Origin: Candidatus Multivoradales bacterium
GTDB lineage: Bacteria > Acidobacteriota > Thermoanaerobaculia > Multivoradales > J023
Direction: 5' to 3'
DNA: 64,000 nt
Assembly: GCA_965248925.1 (NCBI GenBank)
Contig: CBDFLE010000006.1
Location: forward strand, 5,088,001 to 5,152,000
The translations under genes were made by a program, and so were the position numbers. Below are positions 17,841 through 58,000 of the stretch, one piece after another (position 1 is the stretch's first letter; every line of letters starts with the position of its first letter). The notes beneath the pieces are model-generated. The model was not told where the DNA came from, did not search any database, and saw only the letters and a list, made by a program, of their open reading frames with translations.

Positions 17841-17845
17841 CCAGA

Positions 17846-18226
17846 ATGGAAACCACGGCAGCCAACTCAGCTGAACGGCGCATTCTTTACTGCCACTGCG
17901 CCTTCTCGCGGGTGGTGAAGGAGGAGGTGAAATCGGCGGTATTCGCTGGCCTGGCCAGCTCGGGCCAAGCCTTCGACGCCGTGCCCGATCTCTGCGAATT
18001 GGCCGCCAGGCAAGATCCGGCGCTACATCGACTGGCCGCCGGCCGCCGGCCGGTCGAAATCGTCGCCTGCTACCCGCGAGCGGTGCGTTGGCTGTTTCAT
18101 GCCGCGGAGGCTGATCTACCCGAGGACAATGTGCGGATTCACAACATGCGGGCCGAGGAGTCGACCACTATTCTCGAGCGCTTGCTCAAAGAAGACAGCC
18201 TCGCCGACCCGGAGACTAGAGGTTGA
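17846..18226 (+). CDS. Small Cys protein resembling the heterodisulfide reductase A N-terminal Fe-S domain
   Basis: ILYCHCA...DLC...IVACYPR...HNMR parallels HdrA VCHCG...C...VAACSPR...NIRE (similarity judged by eye). Confidence 0.6.
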   Translation: METTAANSAERRILYCHCAFSRVVKEEVKSAVFAGLASSGQAFDAVPDLCELAARQDPALHRLAAGRRPVEIVACYPRAVRWLFHAAEADLPEDNVRIHNMRAEESTTILERLLKEDSLADPETRG

Positions 18227-20762: not shown

Positions 20763-21642
20763 TTCCACCGAGCTGATCCGCGATTTCACCTTGGCGGCGC
20801 AGGCGCCGGACGGGGGATTCCGCGACCGCGGCGGCGACAGCGACCTCTATTACACGGTTTTCGGCCTCGACGTGTTGGCGATTCTCGAGGGTCTCGGTGC
20901 TAGCGGTAGTGAAGGAACTCAGACAGATGCTGAGGTCTGGCGCCGTGCCGGAGGTTTCTTGGCTAGCCTGGGTCACCAAGATCTCGATCTAGTGCATCTG
21001 ACCTGCCTGGCGCGATCCGCGGCAGCCGTTGCCGCGGGAACCAAGACCGCGGAGCTGCCCATCGATCATCAAGTCCTGGTCGATCGTCTTCTAGATCTTC
21101 GCCGTCAAGACGGAGGCTGGGCGATGACCTCGGGGGATTCCTCCAGCACCACCTATGGCACATTCCTGGCCATCGGCGCCCATCAAGACCTAGGGCTGCC
21201 CTTTGCCGCCCCCTCCTCGGCAGCGGCTTTCCTGGCGGCGGCGGTCGGCGAAGACGGCGGCTACGGCTCTGCCCCTTCGATGCCGGTGGCGACCACGCCG
21301 ACCACCGCGGCGGCGGTGGTGGCGCTGCGTCAGCTAGGTGCCGAAGCTCACCCCCAGACCGCCCGCTGGTTGCGCCGTCAGTTGCATCCTCAGGGAGGAT
21401 TTGTGGCGGCGGCTGGAGCTCCGATGCCCGACTTGCTGTCCACCGCGGTGGCCCTGCATGCGTTGTCCGTCTTGCAGGAGCCATGTGCCGATCTGGTCGA
21501 TTCGCTGCTCGATTTTGTCGATAGCCTGTGGACCTCGCGCGGTGCCTTCTTCGGCCATTGGGCGGACGATGCAGCAGATTGCGAGTACGCCTACTACGGC
21601 TTGTTGGCCCTGGGACATCTGGCGGTTTGGAGCGACGGATGA
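20704..21642 (+). CDS. Prenyltransferase/squalene-oxidase-repeat alpha/alpha barrel, protein-prenyltransferase-beta-like
   Basis: Repeats AQAPDGGFRDRGGDSDLYYTVFGL, RRQDGGW, EDGGYG, PQGGF, DCEYAYYGLLAL; single barrel of about 312 aa; no cyclase DxDD. Confidence 0.8.
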   Translation: MSLRLEMLQVARLAPRLLGDSTELIRDFTLAAQAPDGGFRDRGGDSDLYYTVFGLDVLAILEGLGASGSEGTQTDAEVWRRAGGFLASLGHQDLDLVHLTCLARSAAAVAAGTKTAELPIDHQVLVDRLLDLRRQDGGWAMTSGDSSSTTYGTFLAIGAHQDLGLPFAAPSSAAAFLAAAVGEDGGYGSAPSMPVATTPTTAAAVVALRQLGAEAHPQTARWLRRQLHPQGGFVAAAGAPMPDLLSTAVALHALSVLQEPCADLVDSLLDFVDSLWTSRGAFFGHWADDAADCEYAYYGLLALGHLAVWSDG

Positions 21643-23507: not shown

Positions 23508-23740
23508 CGGGTGGCTGGGGAAGGTTTGAGGTCAGCGGCGAAACTCCGTGGTGGCGGTTTTCGAACTAAGATCTTCTCCGTTTTTCGGGCATCTCCCAAA
23601 GAGGATTCGAGTCCCTTCAGGAATTTCTCTCGGTAGTGTTGTCAGGGGTGCGAGCAGGGATTGGTTTGCTAGTGTTATTTGAGCATTTCCTACCCCGGAA
23701 CACGCTTGGACCGCACCTCGGAAGACCTCCAACGCTAGCT

Positions 23741-32230: not shown

Positions 32231-32472
32231 TAGATCACCACCCTTGGCGAAGTTTCTCCTTAAGACGGTGGTCTCTCTGTGGCGCGTGGGCAGCTACTCC
32301 CATGGCTCTGTTGAGGTAAAATACTGGCCGAATAGCGGGTTCTTTCACAGGTCTGTGGGGGGATTCAACAGTCAGTTCGATAGGCCTGGGCGGCGCCTAA
32401 TCGGTGTCAGGGTGGGTCTGCGGGTCAAGTTTTATACTCCTGGAATTTTCTTCCGATGGCTTGCGGAGAACG

Positions 32473-44400: not shown

Positions 44401-47400
44401 CTTGAGGATCGCCAGCCGGACTATTGCAACAGGACTCTGCGGCTAGTGTTTCTGAGTGGAGACTGGATTCCGGTGTCGCTGCCCGATCGAATCCGACGGT
44501 TTTTTTCCGCCGCCGAAGTGGTCAGCCTGGGAGGTGCCACCGAAGCGACGGTGTGGTCGATCTTCCACCCGATCGGCGAAGTCGATCTATCGTCCGTCAG
44601 TATTCCCTACGGTCGGCCGCTCGATAACAACACTTTCTTTGTTCTCGACCGCAGTCTGAGCTTGGTGCCCACTGGCGTGGTCGGCGACCTTTACATTGGT
44701 GGTGTTGGCGTGGCTCGTGGCTATGCCGGTGATCCGCGCAAGACCGCGCAGGCTTTTGTACCTGACCGTTTCGCTGTTGGGGGCGAGCGCCTGTACCGCA
44801 CCGGTGACCTCGGCCGGATGCTCGACAGTGGCGCGATCGAGTTTCTCGGCCGCGCCGACCACCAGGTCAAGATCCGCGGGTTCCGGGTCGAACTCGGTGA
44901 GATCGAAAACACCCTGTTGCAGCATCCGCAAATCGTCGAGGCGGTAGTAGTGGTGCGAAGCGACCCGGCCGGTGACAAGTTGCTGTGCGCCTACCTCGTG
45001 GCTCGAGGTGGTTTCGAGCTGAACGCCGTTGAATTGCGCCGGCATCTCGGCGCAGCCTTGCCGGAGTACATGATCCCGGCGACCTACGTCTTCCTCGATC
45101 AGTTACCGCTGAATGCCAACAACAAACTCGATCGGCACCAGCTGCCGGATCCAGAGGTGGCCAATCTGGCGATCGCCGCCAGGTATGTGGAGCCGGAGAG
45201 CGTTCTGGAGAGTGAGCTGATCGATATCTGGCAGGAAGTGCTCGGCGTCGACGGTATCGGGACCCGGCATGACTTCTTTGAACTCGGTGGACACTCGCTC
45301 TCGGCGGTGCAAGTGATTACCCGGTTGCGCCAGAGCTACGGCATCGAGCTACCGCTGCGCGAGCTGTTCGATGGACCGACGGTGACCGAGCTGGCGGCTC
45401 GCTTGGGGCGGCTCGGGGCCAGCGGCGCCCGCAGCACTACAGCTCTGGAGATCGATCCGAGTCAGCGGCCAGATCCGGCCCCGCTATCGTTCTCTCAGGA
45501 GCGGCTGTGGTTCATCGATCAACTGGAGCCGGGCAACCCTGCCTACAATATCTCTACCGCCCTGCGTCTCAGAGGCGATCTCGATCTCGCTGCTCTGAGC
45601 GCCGCTTTCAGCGAGATCGTTCGTCGGCATGAGGTGTTGAGAACCACTTATCCGGCCGACCAGGGGCGACCTCTGATGGTGATCGCCGAGCCGGCAGCGG
45701 TGGCCGTCGGAGTTATCGATCTTGGGGCTATCGCCGCTGATCAGCGCCTCGATCAGGCTCGCGGGCTGGCCCAAAGAGTCGCTGAGCAGCCCTTCGATCT
45801 GGCCCGAGATTCGCTGTTGCGGGTAGTGGCGGTGCGGTTGGCGGAGGCTGATCACGTCGCTCTGCTGAGCATGCATCACATCGTTACCGATGGTTGGTCG
45901 ATGGGTATCTTGATTGACGAACTGGGAGTGCTCTACGGCAGCCGGGTGAGTGGCCGCGAAGGGAGCTTGCCGGAGCTACCGATTCAGTACGCGGACTATG
46001 CCCACTGGCAGCGACAGCGTCTGACTGACCGGGTGATCGAAAGCCAGCTTAACTTCTGGCGCGGCCAGCTGGAGGGCACCGCCACGGTGATCGATCTGCC
46101 CACCGATTTTCCGCGGCCGGCGCAGCGCAGCTCGCGTGGAGCGGTGGCTCGGGTGAGCATCGACCAGCGCTTGTCGGAGGCCCTGGCCGAGCTTGGCCGG
46201 GCGCGAGGGATGACCACGTTCATGGCCGTGTTGGCAGTGCTCGAGGTCTTACTACAACGCTACTCTGGCCAGAACGATTTCACTATCGGCACGCCGGTGA
46301 TGGGCCGGCACCGGGTGGAAACAGAAAGCTTGATCGGTTTCCTAGTCAACACCTTGGTGTTGCGTGCCGACCTCTCCGGGCAGCCCACTTTTGAATCGCT
46401 CTTGGAGCGGGTGCGAAGGATCAATCTGCGTGCTCACGAGCACCAGGAGCTGCCCTTCGAAAAGCTCGCCGAGCACCTTCAGCCGGACCGAGACCTCAGC
46501 CGCACACCCCTCTTCCAAGTTCTTTTCGTGCTGCAAAAGATGGCTAGCGAAGAGGCTCTGGAGTTGCCCGGCCTGACTCTCGAACCGCTGCGCGTTGATA
46601 CCGAAACGGCCCAGTTCGAGCTTACTTTGATCCTCAACGAGACGGTCGACGGTCTGACCGGATCCTTGATCTACAGTACAGATTTATTCACCGCCGACAG
46701 CATCGAGCGTCTGTGGCGGCATTTTGAGAGCTTGGCGCGGGCGGCGGTCGAGAATCCGGCGACCAAGATCGGCGATCTTGCGTTGCTCAGTGTTGCTGAG
46801 CGGCAAGAGCTGCTGAGTCTGGCCGTGGTCCGTGCACCAGCCTCGGCGAACGCTGGACGACTCACCCTGGTCGAGCTGTTTGCCCGCCAAGTCAAGGCTC
46901 GGCCAGACCATCTCGCGCTCAGCGCCGGTCAGCAGCATTGGACCTACCTGGAACTCGATCAGCAAACCGACCAGCTGGCGGCGCTGTTGCAGAGCCGCGG
47001 CGCCCGGCCGGAGGTGCTGATCGGCTTGTGCTGTGAGCGTGGTGCCAACATGGTGCTCGGCATCCTAAGCATTCTCAAAGCCGGCGCGGCCTACCTGCCG
47101 TTGGATCCGCGGTACCCGAAAGAGCGCCTAAGGCTGATTCTCGACGATTGTCGGGCACCGTTGTTGCTCAGTGAGCGGGCCGTGGCAGGTGACTTGCCCA
47201 GCCATGGTGCCGAGGTGGTCTTAGTCGATCAGCGGGCGGGTTTCGTTTCTGCCGCGTTGGCACCAGTGGCACTCGCGGCGGACCATCCGGTGTACGTGAT
47301 CTACACCTCCGGTTCTACCGGACGGCCGAAAGGGGTGCCGGTGAGCCACCGCAGTGTGGTCAGGCTGTTCGAGGCCTGCCAGCCGTGGTGTGAGTTTGGT

Positions 47401-50061
47401 GCTGAGGAAGTATGGGCGTTGTTTCATTCGTTCGCTTTCGATTTCTCGGTCTGGGAACTCTGGGGCGCGTTGCTGCACGGTGGGCGAGTGGTGGTAGTGC
47501 CCTATGCCACCAGCCGCTCGGCGGACGAGTTCCTCAACTTGCTCCGGCGGGAGCAGGTGACTGTTTTGAGCCAGACCCCTTCGGCTTTCCGCCAGTTGAT
47601 CGCGGCGGTAGAAAATGCCGCGGAGGCCGCCGAGGCTAGGGGCGAGGAATTCTCCACCGGCGCCTTGCGCTGGGTGATCTTCGGCGGCGAAGCGTTGGAG
47701 TTGCAGAGTCTGCGTCCCTGGTTCAAGCGCTTTGGCGACCGCCGGCCGCGGCTAGTCAACATGTATGGCATCACCGAAACAACCGTTCACGTTACCCAGC
47801 GGCATCTCGGCTTGCCGGACCTCGATGCTAGGCAGGGCTCGGTGATCGGCAAGGCCCTCGATCATCTGGGTATCTACCTGCTCGATAGGCACCTTCAGCT
47901 GCTGCCGCGGGGAGTAGTCGGCGAGATCTTTGTTGCCGGTGAGGGTCTCAGCCGCGGTTACCTGAGGCGGGCTGGCCTAACAGCCCTGCGTTTCGTGCCC
48001 CATCCCTACGCCGAAATGCCGGGTGAGCGGCTCTACCGCAGCGGGGATTTGGCCCGTTGGCGACGCGGTGGTGGCCTTGAATACCTCGGCCGCGCCGACA
48101 CCCAAGTCAAGATACGCGGTTTCCGGATCGAACTCGGTGAAGTCGAGGCGGTGCTGGCGGCACACCCAAGAGTGCGTCAAGCGCTGGTGTTGAAGAACGA
48201 GTTCAAGGCTGACGACGCCCGCTTAGTTGCTTATGCGGTGGTCGATACGGAGGAGCCGCCGACTCTCGATGAGCTGCTCACCCACCTGCATGCACAGCTG
48301 CCCGACTACATGGTGCCGGCCGCCTGCTGTCTGCTCGAAGCCTTTCCGCTGACCGCCCATGGCAAGATCGATCGTGGCTCCCTGCCGGAGGTCGAGACGG
48401 CACTAGTGAGGGCCGGTGGCGAGGCTCCGGTAACAACCGCCGAGGAGTTGCTGGCGGGGCTTTGGCAGGAGTTGTTGGGGGTCGAGGGGGTGGGTCGCCG
48501 GGATGATTTCTTCGACCTTGGCGGTCATTCTCTGCTCGCCACCCAACTAGTGTCGAGGCTGCGCGAGGTTTTTGCTCGCGAAGTATCCGTGCGGCAGATT
48601 TTCGAGCATCCGCGATTGGTCGACTTGGCTGCCAGCCTGGAAGACTCGGGGGTGGCTGAGCGACCACCACCGATCGTCCGCCGATCGTCCGCCGGGCGCC
48701 ATTTACTGTCTTTCCCCCAGCAGCGATTCTGGCTGCTTGAGCAGCTCGATCCAGGCTCTGCGGCCCACAATGTGATCGATGCTCTGCGCCTCGAAGGCGA
48801 GTTGGACGTTGCCGCGCTGGGACAGGCGCTGCAGCAGGTGTGGCAACGCCACGAGGTCTTGCGGGTGACTTTCTTCGAGGTCGACGGCCGGCCCTACCAG
48901 CGGCTCGGCTCGAAGTTGCAGCTGACCCTGCCGACGGTCGACCTGGGTGGTCTGGACAGCGCCGACCGGCAGCACCAACTGCGGCGTTGGATCGAGCGAG
49001 AAAGTACTGTTGGTTTCGATCTGGGCCGCGGACCCCTGCTGCGGGCGAAGCTGATTCGCCTGGCGAAGATCGAGCATGTCTTGCTGGTCAACCTCCACCA
49101 CATCGTTTGCGATGGTTGGTCAATGGGGCGCTTGATGGGCGAGGTCACCGGTTTCTACGGTGCCCTTAGGTCGAGGGATGGCCGGCTACCGGAAAAGCTA
49201 CCGGTGAGCTACTTGGACTATGTCGCCTGGCAGCGCGAGTGGCTCGACGAGGCTCGCCAAGAGGAGCAACTGGACTACTGGCGGCTACGCCTAGCCGGTG
49301 ATCCGCCACCGGTCGAGTTGCCGCTCGAGCTGCCCAAACCCCAAGTTGGTCACCGTCGCGGTGCGGCCCATGTCGAATGGCTGCCCAGCGAACTCAGTGG
49401 CGAGTTGGAACGGCTCGGCCGGCGGCAGGGCGCTACCTTGTTCATGACTTTGTTGGCGGCCTTTAAGGTATTGCTACTGCGGGCCTCGGGTATCGACGAT
49501 TTGGTGGTGGGAACTAATCTAGCCAACCGCAATCGGGTCGAACTAGAGGGCCTGGTAGGCAACTTCATCAACATGCTGGCCTTGCGCAGTGACCTTTCCG
49601 GCGCACCGTCTTTTCTCGAGGTGCTGGAGAGGGTACGGGTCACGGCACTCGAGGCCTACGCGCACCAGGATGTGCCGTACGAACAGGTGCTGCGGGAAGT
49701 ACTACCCCATCGCGCAGGCCGCGGCGCGGCGCTGATCCGCTGGATGCTGGCTTTCGAGAAGTATCCACCGAGCGGTGTCGAGCTGCCCGAACTGGTGGTG
49801 TCGGCGGTCGACTTCGAGGTTTCTTCCTCAGCTTTTGACCTCAGTCTCAATCTCAGTGAGGACGGCGAGCGGGGTATCAAGGCGATCTGGGTCTTCGATA
49901 CCGAGTTCTTTGGTCAGGCGGCAATCACCGCCCTGGCGCAGGATTTCCTGGCTGTGCTCGAGCAAGTGACCCTTAACCCGGAACGGCCGGTGAGTGAGGT
50001 GCGGATCGTCCATGAGGCGCCGACTTCGACTCTGGTCGACGCCTTCAATGACGACCTCTGA
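32473..50061 (+). CDS. NRPS 2: C-A(Ala)-T-C-A(Lys/Orn-like)-T-C-A(Thr)-T-C(modAA)-A(Cys)-T-C-A(Thr)-T-C
   Basis: GGAGA RBS before ATG 32473; five A domains with codes DLFNNALTYK, DTENIGTIVK, DFWNIGMVHK, DLYNFSLVWK, DFWSIGMVHK; six HHxxxDG C domains; ends in a C domain plus acidic tail DAFNDDL. Confidence 0.95.
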   Translation: MDRKRQIDGLSPAALAALVKNLRQKKKVVRRRIPRLGRSPAGDRLSFAQERFWFLDRLHPGSATYNIAGAVTLGGELDVAALRASLDALVARHQTLRTRFAERDGSPVQILFDPPLTPLPVIDLQQLLSSDRQQQADRLGARWARSPFELNRGPLLRCLLLHVSARQTQLVLGLHHIIADGWSCAIMVREIADGYSRWCVPEPPADGGWDAELPIQYADFADWQRQRLVDERLASLLDFWQPRLQGVPVLDLPTDGQRSASAAGLGGRLPLRIDRHLTSGLETLAKGAGVTLFVALVGVFGLLLRRFSGQQDFAVATPTAGRDRSELEPLIGCFVNTLLLRLRWSDNLLLDDLLSATGEQMAGALEHQELPFEELVRELDPQRSMATAPLAQVMLVLQGTPLDLRLGDLSLTLEELDTGSAKFDLLLNLTPCSGRLEGFLEYRRELFDRSTVDRLCRYLEALIAAFVGGRGRLLSQLSAAPRSERQQLLYEWSEASTAGSPNRGSVGDLLHRMVAAQSQRSPTSTALIDGASSWSYAQLDEAVGQLASRLVGAGVEPGQPVAVCLRRSPEMVVCLLAVMRAGAYYVPLDVGYPTERLHFIVTDSAVQVVLLGAALEVDLPPVATTLRIEPWRLAELSGTAARRDRECRPSVALASESLAYVIYTSGSTGQPKGVGISHSAATGLMHWARSQFSDSELSGVLAATSICFDLSVFELFAPLCWGGCAVLAEDALNLSGLPAADRVRLINTVPSVMAAVLRQGPLPASVETINLAGEALSGALVAQVYAAAGVRRVLNLYGPSEDTTYSTATEVSRSARVPTIGRPLPATEVYLLDRRGLPVPLGARGELALGGAHLARGYLRRSALTAERFVPHSFSAAAGARLYLTGDQARYRGAGELDFLGRLDHQVKVRGFRIELGEVAARLTEHPAVEEVVAVVEADADGGWLIAFWSGRSADSPAVSGAELRAFLATRLPDFMVPTWLLRLAELPRTANGKIDRRALPGLSEIRGQHSGEYIAPRDAVERTVADIWCQVLKLERVGALDEFFALGGHSLLATRVVARVREAFGIELPLRSVFEFSTVERSAEQIRSLQQAPGELAEWARIEAVSAAVLPLSFAQERLWFVEQLEPGAATHNVPAAVRLVGSLDRLALHAALAAIIERHAILRTVVRSTDGRGLQEFLPSLELLVPLTDLSALDSAAAEDQLALVFAASAQRPFDLEKGPLIRSQLLRLASAEHVLLLELHHLITDAWSMEILIRELTAFYGGKSLPPVELSYGDFALWQRRLLDERALEPHLDYWRRQLAAIEPLELPTDWPRPTQPSQRGGALPVVLGMRLSAALEDFSRRFAATPFMVLLATFAHQLSIYSGRCDIAIGSPVAGRQRIELEEMIGFFVNTLVLRVEVGGDPTFRQLLGRVRELTLQGQEHQQVPFARLVEELSPRRDLGITPLFQVMLVLQTAPRPVLAVEGLELEPLAVHNATAPFELTLSLAPVDDGLEGTFEYAAELFSAATVARFRDHFCHLLSAVVEQPNRRLSELSPLAAGERHQVLVSWAGTTLCLAEPSTVVERIDAAVGGRQAVAAVVDGDQRLSYGELDVAVVALAQRLRRFGVGPEIRVAVHLRRSARLIVALLAVMKCGGAYVPLDPRAPRRRLAQILDDAGVALVLSESQLLGDLPSTEVPVWTLGALEEAAAVADERAFATVAPELTAYLIYTSGSSGRPKGVAISHRALASYVVRAAERYDLGEGDRVLQLNSISFDTSAEEIFPALLAGATLVPWSGELESAGAFLASCQRVGVTVLNFPTAYWHTLVAEVEDDSTAHWPAGLRLVIIGGEQALAQDLGRWRGQLDGAVRLLNTYGPTEATIVASWWEDAGQRLSGATGLPIGEPTPNARTRVLDRCLRPLPIGVPGELCIGGEGLARGYFGNPRLTAELFVPDPYSSDAFDRLYRTGDLVRFTGGGELEFVGRRDHQVKIRGFRVELGEIEAALEADPGVRSAVVTATPSPAGDLRLAAYVVALDSVQLNLEDLATATASRLPNYMLPSAWGELDTLPLLASGKVNRRALASPEWRSESAERVAPVGESEVLLARLFGELLEVAQAGANDDFFRLGGHSLLAIQLVSRVRAALAVELPVRQVFEHPRLADLARRLDVLRHQQAAVELGSIERRPDSAPVELSYAQQRLWFLDQLQPESIAYHVPVVVELEGALDVDALRHSLARTMARHSVLRTIFPTRGGRPAAEVAATAVLGQPAVDLTALTHSAAEKQAQQIVLQSIRRPFDLGRGLLWRTLLLRLGERRHRLILTLHHIVTDGWSMGILLRELTIHYAALKSGEQIDLPALPVSYSDYASWQRGWLGSELIASQLAYWKEALAGAPAVLDLPTDRPRPANPRQLGALHGFRWSSSLSDRLSAFGRDRGATLFMVLRALFQLLLARQARQTDLVIGSPVAGRRQLEVEGLIGLFVNLLPLRAELSGEPTFEDFLEQVRDNTLAAFTHQDLPFERLVDELQPQRDLSYTPIFQTLLVLQNAPLKPAVVSDLELRPLQVDFGIAKFDLTLTFEEGSEGLEGLFEYDLELFDTTTVERFASRLQTLCESALAAPLQCCGRLDLLPPEERRQLLAQTPLRVAAPSLEPLHQLFEAQAARRPDAVALCLGSATLTYRALDRRAERLAAALRGLGVKRGARVGIFLDRSLDLVMAILAVLKMGAAYVPLDPANPAERLAYLLQDSGLGVLLTQRRLLASLPESNLRTVLLDAPWPPPLAGGVRSTPEDAAYVIYTSGSTGKPKGVEVTHANVTRLLSAARQGFDFDQLDAWSLFHSCAFDFSVWELWGALAYGGRLLVVPYWTSRSPDELLELLARQRVTVLNQTPSAFRQLIRAEQSAAAAPRLALRWVIFGGEALELESLRPWFERHGEERPRLVNMFGITETTVHVTYRRLLAADLDRLAGASPIGEPLPDLRLHLLDGYLEPLPIGVVGELYVAGAGIARGYLERPALTAERLVPDPFSGLPGERLYRSGDLARRLTSGDLAYVGRADQQVKIRGFRIELGEIEGALLEHPAVTEAAVLALDGGDGSKLAAYVVATAASDDLRAHLLALLPQYMVPEHIQTLSNLPLTANGKLDQRRLPVPRRQAGEPTAAHVPPTDPLARRVAAAWRQVLERQEIGMTDSFFTLGGDSIKAVRLAGLLNEEFDAGFKVRDVFRFQTVGEQTERLRGGAAGWTIEREHSAGLEQIARFRKGLLADAETAARLPPDWADVYPLSDIEKSMVYYSLLWPEEPVYHDQFVYFVELQQPAGFFRALELLIDRHHNLRCSFDLYSFAEQAKVVHRTAGPQWAVEDLSALAEDAQRRRVLQYQASDLARRFSFTGDLMWRFKLFRLAGERHCVVWTFHHAILDGWSNISLWVELSETCRLADLETRSALPPLATGYRDYVAVTLGRKGSAETTAFWRRYLAGHERSKLPFNRARRQLGTDTAMQIRRRDLGGELLERLRRQAARYELSLQGLCLAAHVFLLHVLSSVGDLVTGVVSNDRVGLADGEKVLGCFLTTLPLRLAADRHHHRLELVREVERRLIDVKAHEIPLVEIAAASGTRVTSGNPLFDTLFNYMDFHRLEGLQQNSCFRAQTSDQQVEAFGLENSEMTNTLFDLEVNTTLGGLGCVVKFSPEHFEPADIEKTLDLYGSLLHAFAEDLGAPLDAEQLLVSSSERQQLVQRYNHTGIAYKTDQLLHQPFERSCARAAARVAVSCAGKSLSYGELENRANQLAHYLIERGVEPGDNVGLIYARSLELAVGVLAILKAGAAYVPIEPSYPALRKSYIVNSSGIRWLLAADQSQTVLDFDQLVADEVMVLVPEPQVLAACSPRIPEVASSAAHRTRQLAYTIYTSGSTGRPKGVMIEHQQAINLLSWVNRQYRVGGDDVLLMLSSVCFDLSVYDLFGGWAAGAKVVIAELGDIREPGRTRDLLDAEGVTFWNSVPSTLGTLVKYLEDRQPDYCNRTLRLVFLSGDWIPVSLPDRIRRFFSAAEVVSLGGATEATVWSIFHPIGEVDLSSVSIPYGRPLDNNTFFVLDRSLSLVPTGVVGDLYIGGVGVARGYAGDPRKTAQAFVPDRFAVGGERLYRTGDLGRMLDSGAIEFLGRADHQVKIRGFRVELGEIENTLLQHPQIVEAVVVVRSDPAGDKLLCAYLVARGGFELNAVELRRHLGAALPEYMIPATYVFLDQLPLNANNKLDRHQLPDPEVANLAIAARYVEPESVLESELIDIWQEVLGVDGIGTRHDFFELGGHSLSAVQVITRLRQSYGIELPLRELFDGPTVTELAARLGRLGASGARSTTALEIDPSQRPDPAPLSFSQERLWFIDQLEPGNPAYNISTALRLRGDLDLAALSAAFSEIVRRHEVLRTTYPADQGRPLMVIAEPAAVAVGVIDLGAIAADQRLDQARGLAQRVAEQPFDLARDSLLRVVAVRLAEADHVALLSMHHIVTDGWSMGILIDELGVLYGSRVSGREGSLPELPIQYADYAHWQRQRLTDRVIESQLNFWRGQLEGTATVIDLPTDFPRPAQRSSRGAVARVSIDQRLSEALAELGRARGMTTFMAVLAVLEVLLQRYSGQNDFTIGTPVMGRHRVETESLIGFLVNTLVLRADLSGQPTFESLLERVRRINLRAHEHQELPFEKLAEHLQPDRDLSRTPLFQVLFVLQKMASEEALELPGLTLEPLRVDTETAQFELTLILNETVDGLTGSLIYSTDLFTADSIERLWRHFESLARAAVENPATKIGDLALLSVAERQELLSLAVVRAPASANAGRLTLVELFARQVKARPDHLALSAGQQHWTYLELDQQTDQLAALLQSRGARPEVLIGLCCERGANMVLGILSILKAGAAYLPLDPRYPKERLRLILDDCRAPLLLSERAVAGDLPSHGAEVVLVDQRAGFVSAALAPVALAADHPVYVIYTSGSTGRPKGVPVSHRSVVRLFEACQPWCEFGAEEVWALFHSFAFDFSVWELWGALLHGGRVVVVPYATSRSADEFLNLLRREQVTVLSQTPSAFRQLIAAVENAAEAAEARGEEFSTGALRWVIFGGEALELQSLRPWFKRFGDRRPRLVNMYGITETTVHVTQRHLGLPDLDARQGSVIGKALDHLGIYLLDRHLQLLPRGVVGEIFVAGEGLSRGYLRRAGLTALRFVPHPYAEMPGERLYRSGDLARWRRGGGLEYLGRADTQVKIRGFRIELGEVEAVLAAHPRVRQALVLKNEFKADDARLVAYAVVDTEEPPTLDELLTHLHAQLPDYMVPAACCLLEAFPLTAHGKIDRGSLPEVETALVRAGGEAPVTTAEELLAGLWQELLGVEGVGRRDDFFDLGGHSLLATQLVSRLREVFAREVSVRQIFEHPRLVDLAASLEDSGVAERPPPIVRRSSAGRHLLSFPQQRFWLLEQLDPGSAAHNVIDALRLEGELDVAALGQALQQVWQRHEVLRVTFFEVDGRPYQRLGSKLQLTLPTVDLGGLDSADRQHQLRRWIERESTVGFDLGRGPLLRAKLIRLAKIEHVLLVNLHHIVCDGWSMGRLMGEVTGFYGALRSRDGRLPEKLPVSYLDYVAWQREWLDEARQEEQLDYWRLRLAGDPPPVELPLELPKPQVGHRRGAAHVEWLPSELSGELERLGRRQGATLFMTLLAAFKVLLLRASGIDDLVVGTNLANRNRVELEGLVGNFINMLALRSDLSGAPSFLEVLERVRVTALEAYAHQDVPYEQVLREVLPHRAGRGAALIRWMLAFEKYPPSGVELPELVVSAVDFEVSSSAFDLSLNLSEDGERGIKAIWVFDTEFFGQAAITALAQDFLAVLEQVTLNPERPVSEVRIVHEAPTSTLVDAFNDDL

Positions 50062-50098: not shown

Positions 50099-51619
50099 AT
50101 GGCAACAGTGCGCCTCTTGACCCTCGATTTCTACACTTTGGAGGAGCTTCGTCAGTGGCTTGAAGACGACCTCGAGCTAGTGCTGGATGATGCAGTTCGC
50201 CAGAGCATTCAAGCGGGTGCCGAATTCGTCCAACGCAAGGCCCAAGAGGACTGCTTCATCTATGGTGTCAATACCGGTTTTGGTTCGCTGTGCGAGACTC
50301 GGGTCGACAGTGATGAGATCGAGTTGCTGCAGTACAACCATGTGGTTTCGCACGCCTGCGGCGTCGGCCAACTGGTGCCTGAGCACACCGCGCGGATGTT
50401 GCTGTTAATCAAGCTACTGACCTTTCGCTCCGGTCGCACCGGTATCTCTCTGCCGACCGTTGGACGGATCGTCGAAATGTGGAATCGGCGGATCACTCCG
50501 GCGATCCCGCGCAAGGGTTCAGTGGGCGCCAGCGGTGATCTCGCGCCACTGGCCCACATGTCGTTGCCGCTGCTGGGTCTCGGCCGGGTCTATTACCGCG
50601 GCGAGGTAATAGACAGTGCGGAGATGTTGGCCGCCGAAGGTTGGCAGCCCCTCGAACTCAAAGCCAAGGAAGGTCTCGCTTTGACCAACGGCGTGCAGTA
50701 CATCAACTCGGTAGCGGTGGAAAGTGTGCTGTGGGCTATCGAGTTGGCCCGTTGCGCCGATTTGGCGGCGGCGATGAGTATCCAGGCGTTTAGTGCCGCC
50801 AGCAGTTTCTATCACCCGCGGTACCACGAAACCTCGTACCACTTAGAACGACGCACGGTTGCTGGCAACTTGAGATTGCTACTCGACGGCAGCAACCACG
50901 ACCGCTTGCCGACCTGTAACTCATCGCAGCAAGACCCCTACTCGTTCCGCTGCATTCCGCAGGTTCACGGGGCCATCCGACAAGTGCTCGGTTTCGTTGC
51001 CGGAGTGATCGAGAATGAGGTCAATGGAGTTTCAGACAACCCGCTGTTCTTCGCCGAGGCCGATGAGATCCACTACGGCGGCAATTTGCACGGCGAGTCC
51101 ACCGCCTTGGCCCTAGATAACTTGGCGATCGCTATTTCGGAGCTGTCTAATATTTCTGAGCGCCGCACCTACCAGCTGCTCTCGGGTAGTCGTGGCCTAC
51201 CCAGCTTCTTGGTTGCCAAGCCAGGCGCCAACTCCGGCTTCATGATCGTGCAATACACCTCGGCGGCGTTGCTCAATGAGAACAAACTGCTAGCCAGTCC
51301 GGCCAGCGTCGACACTATTCCGACCTGTCAGTTGCAGGAGGATCACGTCAGCATGGGTGCTACCTCGGCCCACAAACTCCTGCAAATCCTGACTAACTCC
51401 GAACGCATCCTGGCCACCGAAATGCTGATCGCCGCCCAGGCGATCGATTTCAACCAGGGATTGGAACTGTCAGAGATCACCCGGGCGGTACACCAGGGAC
51501 TGCGCTCGGTGGTGCCGTTTTTGGACAACGACCGGGTGATGAGCGACGATATGGAAACCGCCTTCGAGTTCTTCGCTGGCAACAAACGCGAGTGGAGTAG
51601 CTCGCTAGGGCTGAGCTGA
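50099..51619 (+). CDS. MIO-dependent aromatic amino-acid ammonia-lyase/aminomutase with a histidine-type signature
   Basis: YGVNTGFG, VVSHACGVG, GASGDLAPL (Ala-Ser-Gly MIO), KEGLALTNG, QDPYSFRC, QEDHVSMG. Alternative start ATG 50048. Confidence 0.92.
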   Translation: MATVRLLTLDFYTLEELRQWLEDDLELVLDDAVRQSIQAGAEFVQRKAQEDCFIYGVNTGFGSLCETRVDSDEIELLQYNHVVSHACGVGQLVPEHTARMLLLIKLLTFRSGRTGISLPTVGRIVEMWNRRITPAIPRKGSVGASGDLAPLAHMSLPLLGLGRVYYRGEVIDSAEMLAAEGWQPLELKAKEGLALTNGVQYINSVAVESVLWAIELARCADLAAAMSIQAFSAASSFYHPRYHETSYHLERRTVAGNLRLLLDGSNHDRLPTCNSSQQDPYSFRCIPQVHGAIRQVLGFVAGVIENEVNGVSDNPLFFAEADEIHYGGNLHGESTALALDNLAIAISELSNISERRTYQLLSGSRGLPSFLVAKPGANSGFMIVQYTSAALLNENKLLASPASVDTIPTCQLQEDHVSMGATSAHKLLQILTNSERILATEMLIAAQAIDFNQGLELSEITRAVHQGLRSVVPFLDNDRVMSDDMETAFEFFAGNKREWSSSLGLS

Positions 51620-51623
51620 GCCA

Positions 51624-54600
51624 GTGAAGGCTGAACCAACATTGGCCAGGGTCAGCGCAGCCAGAAGGCCGGCGGGCACTTTGCAACGCCCCTTCGAGCC
51701 GATTCATCGATGGATCGGCCGGCGAGCTGCCAGCGCTCCCCGGAGCATCGCGATCGAATTCGCCGGTGGCTCTCTGACCTTTGGCGAGCTGGCGCAAGCC
51801 GTGGCCGAGCTGGTCGGTAGATTGCGTCGGGCCGGGGTCGACCAGGGCGATTTGGTCGGTGTTGCGACCAGCGATCGAGAGCAAGTGGTGGTGGCGCTGT
51901 TAGCAGTGCTCGAAGTCGGCGGCCTATTCATGCCGATCGACCCAGAATTCCAGGCCGCGACTCTCGGCAGCTTGATCACCGCCGCCGAGCCGTCTTGGTG
52001 GTTGGTGGCGCCGGAGCAAGCCGAGGCGATCAGGGCGGCGAGCCGCGGCTGTGGTGTCGATTGCAGCTGTCTGGATCTTTTTCCGGTCGCTAAGAAAGAG
52101 GAGAAGAGGGCCGCTGGAGCGGCGCCGGCAGCGCTCTCTGTGATCGATCCGGAGCTACCTTGCTACGTCTATTTCACCTCCGGATCCAGTGGCCAACCGA
52201 AGGGCATTGTCGGACGCCTGAAGGCCCTCGATCACTACGCGGGCTGGATGCATGACGCTTTCGACGTCGGCTCAGATTGCCGCTTCAGCCAGCTCATCTC
52301 GCCGGCCTGGGATGGCTTCTTGCTCGATGTCTTCGTGCCCCTGTCGGCAGGCGGTACGGTGGTGGCACCGCCTGATCGAACCACCCTGCTCGATGGCGCT
52401 CGATTGGTGCGCTGGCTCGACCAAGAACAGATCAGCCACATGCATTGCACCCCCTCCTTGCTGCGCAGCCTGCTCAATCAGCCATTGCAGCCGCGGCTGT
52501 TCAGAGCCTTGCGCTGGCTGATGTTGGTTGGCGAAGCGGTGTTGCCTTCGGATGTCGCCCGCTGGATGGAGATCTTCGGCGAGCGGGTTCGACTGGTCAA
52601 CTTATATGGTCCTAGCGAAACTACCCTGACCAAGCTCTTCTATTGCATCTCAAGTGCCGATGGGGCCGCCGATACAGTGCCGATCGGTGGTCCGATGCCA
52701 GGGGCCAGGGTCTTGGTGGTCGACGAGCGTGGCCAACCTTGTCCGCCAGGGCGGGAGGGAGAAATCCTGATCCGCACCCCCTATCGTTCGTTGGGCTATC
52801 TGCGGCAACCCGAGCTCAGTGCCAAGGTCTTTGTCCAGAACCCGTTCAGCGATCGGACTGGCGATCTGGTCTATCGCACCGGCGACCTGGGACGCACGCG
52901 CGCTGATGGTTTGCTGGAGTTTATCGGCCGCCGCGATGGTCAAGTGAAGATCCGCGGCGTCCGCGTCGAGCTAGTGCCGATCGAGAGCCTGCTGTCGTCG
53001 CATCCGGCGGTGAACGAAGTGGTGGTGGTCGAACGGCGTGACCGTCAGGGTGGCAACTTCCTCTGTGCCTTCCTCAGTCTCGGCCAGCCGGTCGAAAGAG
53101 GCGAGCTACGCGCTTTTCTACTCTCCAGCCTTCCCGAGATCAAAGTGCCGTCGGCTTTCGTGGTGATGGAAAGTCTACCGCGGACTTTGACTGGCAAGAT
53201 CGATCGAGGCGCGCTACCTGAGCCGAACCAGTCGCTGCTCGGCCGGGGCCAGTCCTACCGTCAGCCCCGCAATCCGGTCGAGCAGAAGTTGGCCGCAGTC
53301 TTCGGCCGCATTCTGAATCTCGAGCGAGTCGGCATCGATGACAGCTTCTTCGAACTCGGTGGCCATTCGCTATTGTCGATGGAGCTGTTGTCGGGGATTC
53401 GGGATGAACTCGGCGTCGAGCTTCCCCTGGGGCAGATTTTCGAGCATCCGACCATCGTCGCCCTGGCGCGCGTGGTCGCTCAGGGGGCGCCGGTCAGTGC
53501 TGCCCGCTCCGCCATCTCGCCGGTCGAGCTCGGCGATGGAGAGTTTCCTCTGTCTTTCTCACAGCAACGCCTGTGGTTCGTGGATCAGCTGTCGCACGAC
53601 GCCACGTTCCTCAACATTGCCGACGCTGTCGAATTGCGAGGAGAAGTTTCGCCAGAGGTGTTGCGGCGCGCGCTGGAGCGCACCGTCGAACGTCAGGAGG
53701 CTCTGCGCACGGCCTTCGCGGAGCGCGGTGGCGAGCCCGTCCAGATGGTGGGTGAGCCGTGGTCGGTAGCGCTGCCAGAAGTCGATCTTCGGAGTTTGCC
53801 AGAGGCGCAGAGAGATAGCTTGGCAAGTCGACATCTGGCGCAAGAAAGTCGCCGGGTCTTCGATCTGCGCAACGGCCGGCTGCTGCGCTGCCGGCTGCTG
53901 CGTCTGGCCGATCAACGCTACTTGCTGATCTGCGTGATCCATCACATCATCGCTGATTGGTGGTCTTTTGGTGTGCTGGTGCGCGAGCTGACGTCGGCCT
54001 ACGAAGATCTGGCCGCGGGGCGTTCTTGCACCCTGCCGGAACTCGCCGTGCAAGGTCGCGATTTCGCGCTCTGGGAGCGTCGCTGGATGGTCGACGAAGT
54101 GCTGGAGCAACAGCTGGTCTACTGGCGAGAGCGATTGCAAGGTTGTGCGACTTTTCATCCTCTACCGCTCGACTTTCCGCGGCCCAGCCGCCAGATCCAT
54201 GCTGGCGACCAAGTCGACTTCGAGTGGCCGCGGCCGCTGGCTGCTCGGCTGGTGAGGCTTGCCGAGGAGCAGGGTTGCAGCCGTTTCATGCTCGGTTTGG
54301 CGCTCTTCCAGATAGTTGTGGCGCATCTGGTCAAGACCGACGATGTGGTGATCAGTGCGCCGGTGAGCTTTCGCGATCGGCCCGAGGTCGAGCCGTTGAT
54401 CGGTTTCTTCGTCAACACGCTGTTGTTTCGTGCTCAGCTTGCCGTCGAACTCGACTTTGGCGGTTTTCTGCTCCAAGTTCGACAGCGGGTGGTGGAAGCA
54501 TTCGATCATCAGCACCTGCCGCTCGAGCGCTTGATCGAGGAGCGGGCGCCACAGCGCAGCCTCGACCACACCCCGTTGTTGCAGATCGGTTACAGCTTTT

Positions 54601-55013
54601 TCGAGCTGGCCTCGACGACTGCTCTGCGGCTCAATTCTTTGCGGATCGAGCCTTTTCCGGTTGTCGTACAGGAGGTTCAGTTCGAGCTCAATCTGATTGT
54701 TCGTGAGACCGGCGATGGCCTTGCCGGAACCTTGCAGTACCAAACCGCGTTGTTCGAGCGCTCGACTGTCGAGCGCTTTGCCGATCTCTTGGTGAGCTTG
54801 GCCGAAGCGGTTGCAGAACATCCTGAGGCCAGCCTTGGCGAGCTTCGCCAGCGGCTTGTCACGGCGGAGCAAAGTTCTCTTGAGGCTCGCCGTGAGGTGC
54901 TTGGAGGGTGGGCTCGACAGCGCTTCTCGAAACGCCGCCGAACCGTCGTGCGAGCGGTCAGCCGAGCCGCGTCTAACAACTCAGCCAGTGAGGACTCATG
55001 CAAGACTCCCTAG
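51624..55013 (+). CDS. NRPS 3: A(unknown)-T-C
   Basis: FTSGSSGQPKG, NLYGPSETT, YRTGDL, GGHSL, HHIIADWWS; code DGLHMVLLTK; basic tail RFSKRRRTVV. Confidence 0.93.
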   Translation: MKAEPTLARVSAARRPAGTLQRPFEPIHRWIGRRAASAPRSIAIEFAGGSLTFGELAQAVAELVGRLRRAGVDQGDLVGVATSDREQVVVALLAVLEVGGLFMPIDPEFQAATLGSLITAAEPSWWLVAPEQAEAIRAASRGCGVDCSCLDLFPVAKKEEKRAAGAAPAALSVIDPELPCYVYFTSGSSGQPKGIVGRLKALDHYAGWMHDAFDVGSDCRFSQLISPAWDGFLLDVFVPLSAGGTVVAPPDRTTLLDGARLVRWLDQEQISHMHCTPSLLRSLLNQPLQPRLFRALRWLMLVGEAVLPSDVARWMEIFGERVRLVNLYGPSETTLTKLFYCISSADGAADTVPIGGPMPGARVLVVDERGQPCPPGREGEILIRTPYRSLGYLRQPELSAKVFVQNPFSDRTGDLVYRTGDLGRTRADGLLEFIGRRDGQVKIRGVRVELVPIESLLSSHPAVNEVVVVERRDRQGGNFLCAFLSLGQPVERGELRAFLLSSLPEIKVPSAFVVMESLPRTLTGKIDRGALPEPNQSLLGRGQSYRQPRNPVEQKLAAVFGRILNLERVGIDDSFFELGGHSLLSMELLSGIRDELGVELPLGQIFEHPTIVALARVVAQGAPVSAARSAISPVELGDGEFPLSFSQQRLWFVDQLSHDATFLNIADAVELRGEVSPEVLRRALERTVERQEALRTAFAERGGEPVQMVGEPWSVALPEVDLRSLPEAQRDSLASRHLAQESRRVFDLRNGRLLRCRLLRLADQRYLLICVIHHIIADWWSFGVLVRELTSAYEDLAAGRSCTLPELAVQGRDFALWERRWMVDEVLEQQLVYWRERLQGCATFHPLPLDFPRPSRQIHAGDQVDFEWPRPLAARLVRLAEEQGCSRFMLGLALFQIVVAHLVKTDDVVISAPVSFRDRPEVEPLIGFFVNTLLFRAQLAVELDFGGFLLQVRQRVVEAFDHQHLPLERLIEERAPQRSLDHTPLLQIGYSFFELASTTALRLNSLRIEPFPVVVQEVQFELNLIVRETGDGLAGTLQYQTALFERSTVERFADLLVSLAEAVAEHPEASLGELRQRLVTAEQSSLEARREVLGGWARQRFSKRRRTVVRAVSRAASNNSASEDSCKTP

Positions 55014-58000
55014 AAGGATTCCACCTTTCGAGCCAGCAGCTTCGGCTGTGGAGTGTGGCGGTTCGGGGTCAGGGCATGACCCCGCGAGCGGTGGCAAGGA
55101 TCGAATTCCACGGCGAGCTGGATCCTCAGGCCCTGTCTGCGGCGGCGAGCCAGCTGGTGGCGCGGCATGAGATTTTGCGTACCGCTTTTCGTTGCCTGCC
55201 AGGGATGAGCCGGCCGCTGCAGGTGATCGAGGAGCCGGCCGCGCCCTTGATCGAGAGGCGGGATTTCAGTGGCATCGACGAGCAGCTGGCCGCGGTGGCC
55301 GTGGCGCAAGCTTGCATCGAGTTGCAAGAGTGCGAACTCGACCTCGAAGTCGGGGTTGCATGGCGAATGCTCTGCTTACGGTTGGGCAGGGATCGCCACC
55401 AGCTGGTGTGGGTGCTACCAGCATTGTGCTGTGATGCCGCGAGCATGGTCAACTTGACCGCCGAGTTGAACCAGGCTTATCGGCAGGGGGCGGCAACCCT
55501 GGACGAGGCCACCCAATATGCCGACATCTCTAGTTGGCAGGCCGAGCTTCTGGAGGCTGATGAAGCCAGTGAGGGGAGGGCCTTTTGGCGCCGCTTGGGC
55601 GCCGCACTACCGGTCCTCGGCGACTTGCCCTTCGAACGACGCCAGGCGGAGTCCGCCGCTGGCGAGCGGGGGACCTCGCGGGTCCGGTTGCCGGCGGTGT
55701 TGGTAGACGCTCTGCGGGTATCGGCCGCAGCTCACGGCGCTGAGCCCAAAGTGCTGCTGGCGGTGGTTTGGGCGACCTTGCTGGGCCGGCTGCTGGAATC
55801 CTCCCGAGTGGCTCTAGGGATGCTTGTCGAGGGGCGTCCCTATGAAGAGATGGTGACCGCGGTGGGCCCCTACGCGCGCTGGGTGCCGCTCGATTTCCCC
55901 CTGCCAGACGAGGCCGATTTTGGCGCCTTGGTCGAGTCCACGGCGGCCCGTTTGAACGAACTCGAGGATTGGCTGGACAGCTACGACGAGCATGCTCTAG
56001 CAACCGCCTCCGAAGCTGCCGATGGGCATCGATTCGGCTTCGAATTCGAATCTCTCACTGCTGTGGTTTCCGCCGACAAGTTTCGCCTGGTGGAGCGTCG
56101 GTGGACTTCAGAGCCCTTCGAACTTCTATTGAAAGTGTGCCTCGCGGCGGCTGGCGACAGTGACGCCGAGAGTCATGTCGAACTGCATTGGAATTCTGCC
56201 CGCTGGCTGGGTTGGGAGCTCGAGCAGCTGCCATATTGGTATCGGCACCTACTCACCGACGCGGTGGAGCGGGGCGGGGCCTTGACAGCGTTGGCATGGG
56301 GTGACGCTGCCCCTCGCCGCGCTCGCTTGGCGGCGCTGAGCAGTACAGCGATCGATGTTGGCAGCGATGCCTTGCTACCGCGGCTGGTCGAGCACCAGGC
56401 CAGAATGACGCCACAACGTTGGGCGGTCAGCAGCTCCCAGGGCGAGCTCAACTATGCCGAGTTGGTTGAGCGCGCCACGCGGCTGGCGCGGCAACTGCGC
56501 GCGCGGGGCGTTGGTCAGGGAGACCGAGTAGGGATTGCAGTGCAGCGATCGCTGGCGATGGTGGTCGGCATGTTGGCGATCTGGAAGACTGGAGCTGCCT
56601 ATGTGCCGCTCGACCCAAGCTATCCGGCCGAGCGCTTACGCTTCATGATCGAGGATTCGGACCTCGCCTTGTTGCTCACCCACGAAGGCGGTTTGGCCGA
56701 CTTGGACGGCTTCACTGATCGCTGTTTGCTGGTTGATCCAGCGGGGGTTGGTGAGGGGTCGACAGCTGGCGGGGAAGGATTGCCCGAAGTTTGCTCATCG
56801 GCGCCCGCTTACGTCATCTACACCTCGGGCTCGACCGGACGGCCGAAGGGAGTAGTGGTAGCCCATCGGGCGATCGCCAATCGCTTATCGTGGATGCGCC
56901 GCGCCCAGCCGTTGGCGGCCGACGATCGGGTGCTGCAGAAAACTCCTTTCAGCTTCGATGCCTCGATTTGGGAGATCTTCCTTCCTCTGATCAGCGGCGC
57001 CGGCTTGGTGTTGGCCGAGCCTGGTGGGCAGCGTGACAACGCCTACTTGCTGGCGACCGTCGTCGCCCAGCGCATTACTGTGCTGCAATTGGTGCCATCG
57101 CAGCTGGCGGTTTTTCTACAGCAGCCTGATATTGAAGAGGGCTGTCGAGGGCTGCGGCGGATGTACTGTGGCGGGGAGGCTTTCGCGGTCCACCTGGCGG
57201 CTCGTTTTCATCAGCTTTGTGGTGCCGAGCTGTACAACCTCTATGGCCCCACCGAGGCTTCCATCGATGTTGCTTGGCAGCAGAGCTCGGGCGCCATGAG
57301 CGACGAAAGTGGCCGCGCCGCCTGGTTGCCGATCGGCCGGGCGCTTGACAACGTCCGCTTGTTGGTGGTCGATCGGCGTCTGCGCCAGCAGCCCTGGGGA
57401 GTGTCCGGCGAGCTGCTGATCGCTGGTGTCGGCCTGGCCCAGGGCTATCACCATCGGCCCGGCCTGACCGCCGAGAGGTTCTGCCCTGATCCAGCGGGGG
57501 TCGAAGTCGGTGGTCGTGGCTATCACTCCGGCGACCGGGTGCGGCGGCTACGCGACGGTGGGCTCGAGTTCCTTGGTCGCCTCGACGAGCAGGTCAAGTT
57601 GCGGGGCTTTCGCATCGAGCTGGGTGAGATCAATACTCTGATCGAGCGTCAGCCGGGTGTGCGCGAGGCGGCGACGGTGCTCCACGGCGACAGCATGGAC
57701 CAGATCCTGGCTACTTACGTGGTGCCGAGCGACCAGCAGTTGGAGGTCGAAAGTCTCGGACGGGTGCTGGCGGAGTGGCTGCCTGAGCACATGATTCCGA
57801 CGGTTTTCGTCGAACTCGATACTTTGCCGCGGCAGCCCAACGGCAAGCTCGATCGGGGTGCTCTACCCGAGCCACGGCGGCAACGTGGCGAACAGGTGCA
57901 GTGGGTGGCGCCGCGCAATTCTACCGAAGAGCTGTTGGCCGGATTCTGGTGCGAGCTGTTGGGAGTCGACGAGGTTGGTATCGACGATGATTTTTTCGCC

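Follow-up and report, generated by a model that had tools for sequence, protein, structure and literature searches.

A MIO enzyme gene within a nonribosomal peptide synthetase assembly line

We analysed a 64,000-nucleotide stretch from the genome of a Candidatus Multivoradales bacterium (Acidobacteriota), hereafter the window (G000:C6:5088001-5152000; genome size 8.0 Mb), in which a gene for an enzyme of the 4-methylideneimidazole-5-one (MIO) type lies among genes for nonribosomal peptide synthetases (NRPSs). Reading the domain order by Pfam tiling and by phmmer with the window's own domains, we found one NRPS assembly line, encoded on the same strand throughout, that starts at position 23636, runs past the window end and contains 18 adenylation (A) domains in all. 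The MIO gene stands 37 nt behind an NRPS gene that ends in a condensation (C) domain (C8), and 4 nt before the GTG of one that opens with an A domain (A8; coordinates in Table 1)—an arrangement described in an earlier note on this DNA and borne out here. C8 scores 305 bits as a Condensation domain and has no A domain behind it in cis. In the downstream protein, A8 is followed by a carrier (T) domain, T8, and by C9, the domain that uses the A8 residue as its donor.

An open reading frame from the GTG at 49994 overlaps the upstream NRPS gene, and the ATG at 50099, preceded by a hexamer resembling a ribosome-binding site, is the likely start of the MIO gene; its stop is the TGA at 51617-51619. 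Between 49500 and 52200, no sigma-70-like promoter was found, and the four terminator-like matches in this interval did not rise above shuffled controls (mean 1.9, s.d. 1.5).

A dedicated second histidine ammonia-lyase paralog

The MIO enzyme matches PF00221 with 547 bits, and its closest solved structure is the HutH protein of P. putida, a histidine ammonia-lyase (HAL; PDB 1B8F/1GKM; 2e-105). The two share their fold, length and MIO-forming Ala-Ser-Gly triad, and an alignment to 1GKM shows that Y53, N195, Q277, Y280 and R283 (P. putida numbering, used throughout for the enzyme) are also retained. The earlier note had read SH in VVSHACG and E in QEDHVSM as HAL-type residues, and indeed they align to S82/H83 and E414 of the P. 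putida enzyme. What sets the window's protein apart is Leu in place of F329, accompanied by other fixed changes beside N195 and E414. It passed the NCBIfam HAL subfamily model NF006871 (564.6 bits; cutoff 524), marginally missed the hutH equivalog model TIGR01225 (538.4 bits; cutoff 539.15), and reached neither the tyrosine aminomutase (TAM) model TIGR03832 (337 bits; cutoff 501) nor the phenylalanine aminomutase (PAM) model TIGR04475 (328 bits; cutoff 800).

The genome has exactly two PF00221 genes. The other one (C6:2206356-2207921) scores 652.6 bits on the hutH equivalog model and lies beside the only urocanase (PF01175) match and the only above-cutoff hutI match of the genome (C6:2.209-2.213 Mb). 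This canonical hutH-hutI-hutU cluster is 2.9 Mb away from the MIO gene; the absence of hut genes nearby, reported in the earlier note, therefore holds, and the separate hut operon that the note had proposed to look for exists. The two HALs of the genome are 41% identical to each other, and a second HAL-like match (39-43% identity) is also present in three other genomes (G124, G401 and G402) that encode a HAL of the Leu type described below. The MIO gene is a dedicated second HAL paralog and no ordinary hutH, from which it differs in being embedded in an NRPS locus, in having no hutU or hutI near it and in coexisting with a separate hutH.

A Leu329 subclade of HALs

Among 8000 scored candidates, at least 119 representatives of clusters formed at 90% identity were 59-70% identical to the MIO enzyme. 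We aligned these 119 homologues and four HALs from NRPS loci with 102 other genome-locus HALs and the hut-type HAL of the window's own genome. The F329 position is occupied by Leu in 119/119 database homologues (at least 59% identity) and 4/4 NRPS-locus HALs, and by Phe in all 103 hut-type sequences. Y53, H83, N195, Y280, R283 and E414 are kept in every one of the 119 homologues and in the four NRPS-locus HALs, and the catalytic residues other than F329 are identical between the Leu-type and the Phe-type group. Fixed differences between the groups (Phe type to Leu type) are S112T, T197V, E227Q, F329L, P333S, S410C, A411Q and N412L, several of which flank N195 or E414. The F329-equivalent is an active-site residue: according to PMC11432326, the F325Y variant of a Geobacillus HAL stays active, loses efficiency and gains activity on L-histidinamide.

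The earlier note had suggested a phylogeny against HutH. In a FastTree phylogeny of 108 sequences, rooted on non-HAL MIO proteins and comprising every third database homologue, every second hut-type locus and the named members, 51 of 51 sampled Leu-type sequences grouped in a single clade free of Phe-type sequences (support 0.89; stem 0.85 substitutions per site). The groups are also apart in their hutH equivalog scores, which are 538-557 bits for Leu-type and 600-652 bits for hut-type HALs (cutoff 539).

The distribution of the Leu type is rare and patchy. At a threshold of E <= 1e-150, it occurred in two of 401 genomes sampled from the window's phylum (the window's own and G124; other best matches had at most 48% identity, and neither G024 nor G152 had a Leu-type HAL at this threshold), and in two of 401 from the phylum of two Anaerolineae metagenome-assembled genomes (MAGs), which were those MAGs themselves. 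None was found in 381 genomes of a third phylum (that of G403). Sampling around a Pyrinomonadaceae MAG led to the same contig of G124, which by inference makes Acidobacteriota the window's phylum. Scanning a genome collection with peptide words of the MIO enzyme returned mostly hut-type HALs and, as the only Leu-type loci, L015 and L016; a metagenome scan with generic patterns (VGASGDLAP plus the SHA motif) gave one Leu-type locus among the 80 matches listed. Named members come from Chromobacterium vaccinii, Stigmatella, Polyangium, Phaselicystis, Pyrinomonadaceae and Chloroflexota; among them are WP_046155457.1 (C. vaccinii), WP_272140311.1 and WP_225408521.1 (Stigmatella), WP_281325544.1 (Polyangium sp.) and AYM54407.1 (Phaselicystis flava).

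Leu-type HALs are linked to NRPS genes

We screened HAL loci by tblastn with the A8 and C9 domains of the window and with hutU and hutI of the same genome. All five Leu-type loci with readable flanks (the window, L015, L016, L125 and L128) have NRPS A or C domains beside the HAL gene, and in none of them was hutU or hutI found. Among Phe-type loci, 0/103 from genomes had an NRPS match, many of them having hutU or hutI; of those from metagenomes (79 among the matches listed), 41 had hut genes and one had a weak AMP-binding match (22.7% identity). In the tree, the NRPS-linked members are spread over the Leu clade rather than bunched, and they stem from at least two phyla (Acidobacteriota and the Anaerolineae MAGs), with a further one on a metagenome contig of no assigned phylum. 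Proteins in which HAL and NRPS domains are fused were also sought, and only hut-type fusions with hutI-like or urocanase domains came up (39-43% identity). The HAL-NRPS linkage is real and far from chance, and the MIO gene falls in a HAL subfamily that is clearly marked off, associated with NRPSs and paired with a dedicated A domain.

The layouts vary around this common core. The window has C8, HAL and A8-T-C in this order. In L125 (genome G124), a protein containing a methyltransferase and ending in A-T precedes the HAL gene, which is followed by C-A-T-C, so that an intact C domain flanks the linked A domain in cis on either side. Two loci, the window and L125, thus show independently of each other a HAL-linked A domain in an elongation module with an intact C domain before it. 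In L016, the HAL gene is followed by a C-like domain without catalytic His and then A-T-C-A-T and a thioesterase (TE) domain, a type II thioesterase and a sulfotransferase; in L015, by a C remnant and A-T-C-A-T, and then C-A-T. Because the C domain ahead of it is either cut short (L015) or devoid of the catalytic His (L016), no functional domain comes before the linked A domain in these two NRPSs. In L128, the HAL gene begins ~60 nt behind a stand-alone A domain. No tailoring gene common to all five loci was found.

Two further features of the Anaerolineae NRPSs are recorded here. The C domain that follows the HAL-linked module reads FHEITLD instead of HHxxxDG in both L015 and L016. The second A domain of each (L015:11589-17402; L016:11530-18912) has the code VAWLTSLSNK, whose lack of Asp at 235/236 suggests a substrate without an α-amine, perhaps a hydroxy acid.

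The partner A domain has an unusual code and belongs to a large A-domain family

A8 (PF00501, 220.9 bits; PF13193 and the carrier model PF00550 also match in this gene) contains the motif AWDGFLLD. We assigned ten specificity positions by GrsA numbering, with the alignment anchored on A8, and calibrated them on the remaining 17 A domains. These give recognisable codes, which we take to be Gly-, Leu-, Ala-, Thr-, Cys-, Gln-, Asn- and Asp-like; one of them, DFWNIGMVHK, compares with the published Thr code DFWNVGMVHK (PMC9113097). Read again from this alignment, A8 retains Asp235 and has the odd code DGLHMVLLTK, both as the earlier note had stated. The HAL-linked A domains of the other loci are coded DAPHLALLVK (L128), DAAQLALLAK (L125), DACQLALLAK (L015) and DACQMALLAK (L016); in the latter three, position 331 was counted from the NLYGP(S/T)E motif where the alignment had a gap. 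Asp235 and Lys517 are kept in five out of five. An A-domain tree places the five HAL-linked domains, in two groups, outside the cluster formed by 20 other A domains.

When residues 1-545 of the A8 protein were searched against the database, 119 proteins came back, and the domain most similar to A8 was taken from each. At position 239 these domains have Arg (87), Lys (27), Leu (four) or Thr (one, a partial domain), and at position 278 most have His (116); the combinations Arg-His (86) and Lys-His (26) together account for 112/119, in line with the relation to the Arg239/His278 code type proposed in the earlier note. The domain starts within the first 30 residues of the protein in 115/119 cases, as a loading domain would. 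A8 thus falls into a large family whose A domains mostly open their proteins and have a basic residue 239; it differs from them in having lost that residue. The four Leu239 proteins (P0231, P0235, P0241 and P0247) have the code DGLH[LF]VLLTK, the A-T-C architecture of the window gene and 53-57% identity; in P0157, an Arg-His domain at the N-terminus is joined by a second domain coded DAAQLALLAK. The basic residue is thus lost in A8, in these four orthologue-like proteins and in L128 (Leu or Pro), and the two family members with a known HAL neighbour, A8 and L128, are both without it.

Across this family (P0135-P0253), codes follow the pattern D-[AGP]-[RK]-H-[LV]-x-[LI]-x-x-K in proteins of A-T, A-T-C or A-T-C-A-T architecture, many of them from Acidobacteriota and Thermoanaerobaculia MAGs; the substrate of the Arg/Lys239 members is presumably an acidic amino acid used as starter. 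We take the Arg239/His278 type to be that of microcystin modules activating the side-chain carboxyl of D-MeAsp and D-Glu, for which the literature searched gave no confirmation; nor did it yield a match for the A-domain codes of β-Tyr or of the microcystin iso-Asp and iso-Glu modules. Activated in this manner, D-MeAsp and D-Glu are in effect β- and γ-amino acids with a carboxylate on the amine-bearing carbon. The A8 relatives share the Arg-His or Lys-His pair with this presumed type and, in the rest of their code, the pattern of A8. If this assignment is right, a change from Arg239 to Leu is what would be expected for a β-amino acid with an imidazole substituent.

A candidate route to a histidine-derived, amine-retaining building block

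We propose that the MIO gene encodes a specialised HAL paralog dedicated to the surrounding lipopeptide NRPS of ~18 modules, from a subclade that would have spread horizontally, keeping the MIO cofactor and all His-recognising residues while the pocket around them was remodelled (F329L, T197V, P333S, N412L, S410C and S112T). Free L-histidine would be the substrate, and the product would be handed to A8, encoded 4 nt downstream. A8 would load it on T8, C8, acting in trans from the preceding protein, would acylate its amino group, and C9 would pass the chain on. An internal module calls for a product that still has its amine, and a MIO 2,3-aminomutase reaction forming β-histidine (3-amino-3-(imidazol-4-yl)propanoate) would be the simplest way to one. 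Alongside the observed paralogy, subclade, NRPS linkage, module position and unusual A-domain code, we infer that the HAL product is the A8 substrate and that the reaction is that of a mutase rather than a lyase. An aminomutase that forms β-histidine and feeds A8 is the explanation we lean towards, with a chance that we put somewhat short of even.

There is precedent for such a pairing. In the habitasporin pathway, a MIO aminomutase gene adjoining its NRPS supplies β-Phe, and HabB/HabA resemble the window's pair both in this adjacency and in a non-standard A-domain code (PMC9802438). The HAL-linked codes match that of hydroxyphenylglycine, DIYHLGLLCK, at 5-6 of ten positions (PMC9113097). Hydroxyphenylglycine has its ring on the amine-bearing carbon, as β-histidine does, and we therefore count this likeness in favour of β-histidine. 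We further take SgcC4, CmdF and AdmH to be NRPS-side MIO aminomutases (PDB matches of the window's enzyme include 2OHY and 3UNV); those act on Tyr or Phe and belong to the TAM/PAM families, whereas the MIO enzyme has His-type selectivity residues. No true Tyr aminomutase was above cutoff in five related genomes. No histidine aminomutase was described in the literature searched, and a 2022 review states that genomes give no evidence of a histidine mutase (PMC9002059).

More broadly, the Leu329 subclade, which numbers at least 119 clusters (90% identity) and extends over Acidobacteriota, Chloroflexota, myxobacteria and Chromobacterium, could be a missing third branch of MIO aminomutases, the histidine 2,3-aminomutases, and β-histidine a recurrent and so far undetected NRPS building block. 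Two A-domain lineages would then have converged on a D-[AG]-x-[HQ]-[LM]-[AV]-L-L-x-K pocket. We advance this wider view tentatively and hold it to be rather less than an even bet.

Several observations weigh against β-histidine. We found no sequence feature that separates a mutase from a lyase. Leu-type proteins score no higher than hut-type HALs on either the Tyr 2,3-aminomutase model (320-351 versus 322-402 bits) or the Phe aminomutase model (305-331 versus 329-408 bits). β-Amino-acid A domains have a bulky aromatic residue or Thr next to the amine-binding Asp (PMC9802438), a position held by Gly in A8 and by Ala in the other four linked A domains. The linked A domain comes first in L015 and L016, the A8 family is mostly N-terminal, and the linked loci number only five. 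A β-histidine-containing natural product was not found in the literature searched, nor do we know of one. The earlier note's proposal of a HAL-derived β-amino-acid aminomutase has thus fared unevenly: the dedicated paralog, the NRPS linkage of its subclade and the elongation position of A8 behind an intact C domain speak for it, while the aminomutase models and the lack of a bulky residue by Asp235 do not.

As no sequence feature tells mutase from lyase, the supply of urocanate by a true HAL remains a serious rival, although we judge it unlikely. The A domain would activate urocanate, Asp235 pairing with the imidazole in place of an amine, for use as a cap or starter; otherwise, urocanate would be converted further before loading. 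All catalytic and His-binding residues of a HAL are kept, the HAL subfamily cutoff is passed, and both the first position of the linked A domain in L015 and L016 and the N-terminal position of the A8 family would fit a starter. Moreover, a starter role of urocanate is proven for the imidacin pathway of Stigmatella aurantiaca, whose assembly line likewise uses a HAL product loaded by an A domain (PMC11301661). That system, however, is a polyketide synthase with urocanate at the start and a HAL encoded far from the cluster, whereas the HAL of the window lies inside the NRPS operon and its module is internal; by the imidacin example, the genome's hut-type HAL could already provide urocanate (PMC11301661). 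An intact C domain, whose acceptor needs a nucleophilic amine, stands before the linked A domain in the window and L125, Asp235 is kept in all five linked A domains, and the five loci share no further tailoring gene.

Alternatively, the A domain might load plain L-histidine through an atypical pocket, and the enzyme act on carboxyl-derivatised histidine, either as the carrier-bound thioester or as the N-terminal residue of the released peptide. To our knowledge, carrier-bound substrates are not used by any MIO enzyme, and the subclade never departs from Arg283, the residue that binds the free carboxylate. Assembly acylates the amine of the residue in both the window and L125, so that deamination of a finished peptide is impossible there; in L015 and L016, by contrast, the linked residue would be N-terminal with a free amine. 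HALs do accept histidine methyl ester, and the gain of L-histidinamide activity in F325Y concerns the very position that is among the subclade's fixed changes (PMC11432326). On balance, we regard this route as improbable. Least probable of all, to the point where we would be surprised by it, is adjacency without function, in which an ordinary second hutH landed in the cluster and the A8 substrate is unrelated to it. Similarity would annotate the protein as a HAL, and five loci are a small sample; yet the linkage of all five Leu-type loci with readable flanks and next to none of the Phe-type loci, the operon-like spacing on both sides of the gene, the monophyly of a subclade with fixed active-site changes, and the scatter of NRPS-linked members over clade and phyla all argue against such a coincidence.

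Organization of the assembly line and neighbouring genes

The features of the window and of the part of the assembly line beyond it are compiled in Table 1. Behind the 7262-aa gene follow three further NRPS genes, the last of which ends in a thioesterase, and then an ABC transporter.

Table 1 Features of the MIO gene locus, its assembly line and the flanking genes (window positions unless given as G000:C6)
Feature	Position	Strand	Remarks
TPR-CHAT protein	728-4111		1127 aa; left window edge
Stand-alone TauD gene	10992-12044		174 bits; upstream of the NRPS cluster
Gene run directly upstream of the NRPS genes	13607-23507		See text
NRPS gene 1	23636-32230	+	FAAL-T-C-A1-T-C-A2-T (lipo-initiation)
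NRPS gene 2	32404-50061	+	C-A3-T-C-A4-T-C-A5-T-C-A6-T-C-A7-T-C8
A4 region	35104-37110		Code DTENIGTIVK
C8, terminal Condensation domain of NRPS gene 2	48688..50007	+	Intact HHIVCDGWS
RBS-like hexamer GGAGAA	50083..50088	+	10 nt before the ATG of the MIO gene
HAL-like MIO enzyme gene	50099-51619	+	506 aa; Leu329 subclade
MIO-forming triad Ala144-Ser145-Gly146 (GASGDLAPL)	50528..50536	+	Invariant in a 33-sequence alignment
Leu330 codon, counterpart of P. putida HAL Phe329	51086..51088	+	Subclade-defining active-site substitution
NRPS gene A8-T8-C9	51624-55013	+	1129 aa; GTG start
A8 adenylation domain	51714..53213	+	Code DGLHMVLLTK; Asp235 and Lys517 kept; Leu239, His278
T8 carrier domain	53274..53483	+	
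C9 condensation domain	53532..54851	+	Unusual motif HHIIADWWS, Trp for the usual Gly
NRPS gene	54998-61426	+	C-like domain without HHxxxDG, then A9-T-C-A10-T
Condensation-like domain without HHxxxDG	54998-56380		
NRPS gene	from 61423		7262 aa; six further modules and a fused C-terminal TauD domain
TauD/TfdA dioxygenase domain	G000:C6:5170105-5171208		161 bits; fused to the C-terminus of the 7262-aa NRPS
Condensation-like domain without HHxxxDG	G000:C6:5171108-5172490		
Condensation-like domain without HHxxxDG	G000:C6:5175741-5177120		
Last NRPS protein	G000:C6:5180378-5183470		C, C-terminal subdomain of an A domain only, T, TE

Three of the NRPS genes start with a Condensation-like domain (96-124 bits) that lacks HHxxxDG, and each of them comes after a gene ending in a normal C domain. 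The A domains behind these atypical domains have Gln- and Asp-like codes. We take the HHxxxDG-less domains to resemble the 'interface' domains that recruit TauD-type β-hydroxylases in siderophore NRPSs; the fused and the stand-alone TauD proteins are probably the β-hydroxylases for the Asp and Gln modules. With only the C-terminal subdomain of an A domain in the last NRPS protein, the termination module seems to be without a complete A domain. A4 and, in the 7262-aa gene, A14 and A15 (DAEDIGTIVK and DAEIAGLISK) have codes that look like the basic amino acid type.

Directly upstream of the NRPS genes lies a run encoding a radical SAM protein, a class V aminotransferase, a CobW-like GTPase, a 4Fe-4S ferredoxin, a DUF116-polyprenyl synthase fusion, a prenyltransferase-like protein and a squalene-hopene-cyclase-like protein, which may be a separate terpene cluster or a source of lipid. 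The TPR-CHAT protein at the left edge is unrelated to the MIO gene finding.

Implications for HAL annotation and NRPS chemistry

Lyases of the MIO type are known for His, Phe and Tyr, but MIO aminomutases only for Phe and Tyr. A histidine aminomutase is plausible chemistry and is undescribed in the literature searched. New here are the Leu329 HAL subclade, its linkage to NRPS genes, the related unusual codes of the partner A domains, their elongation position in two loci, and the kinship of A8 with the Arg/Lys239-His278 domains. Together, they provide a sharply defined candidate family with one diagnostic residue, Leu329, and a conserved partner A domain, and the presence of public Leu329 members in culturable bacteria (Chromobacterium vaccinii and Stigmatella) makes the question of their chemistry directly testable. 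Whatever that chemistry is, the Leu329 marker would let annotation pipelines tell biosynthetic paralogs from catabolic hutH, and the code of the HAL-linked A domains would fill a gap in NRPS substrate prediction. The pairing of a divergent HAL with an A domain thus recurs in other bacteria and may supply assembly lines with an undescribed histidine-derived building block.

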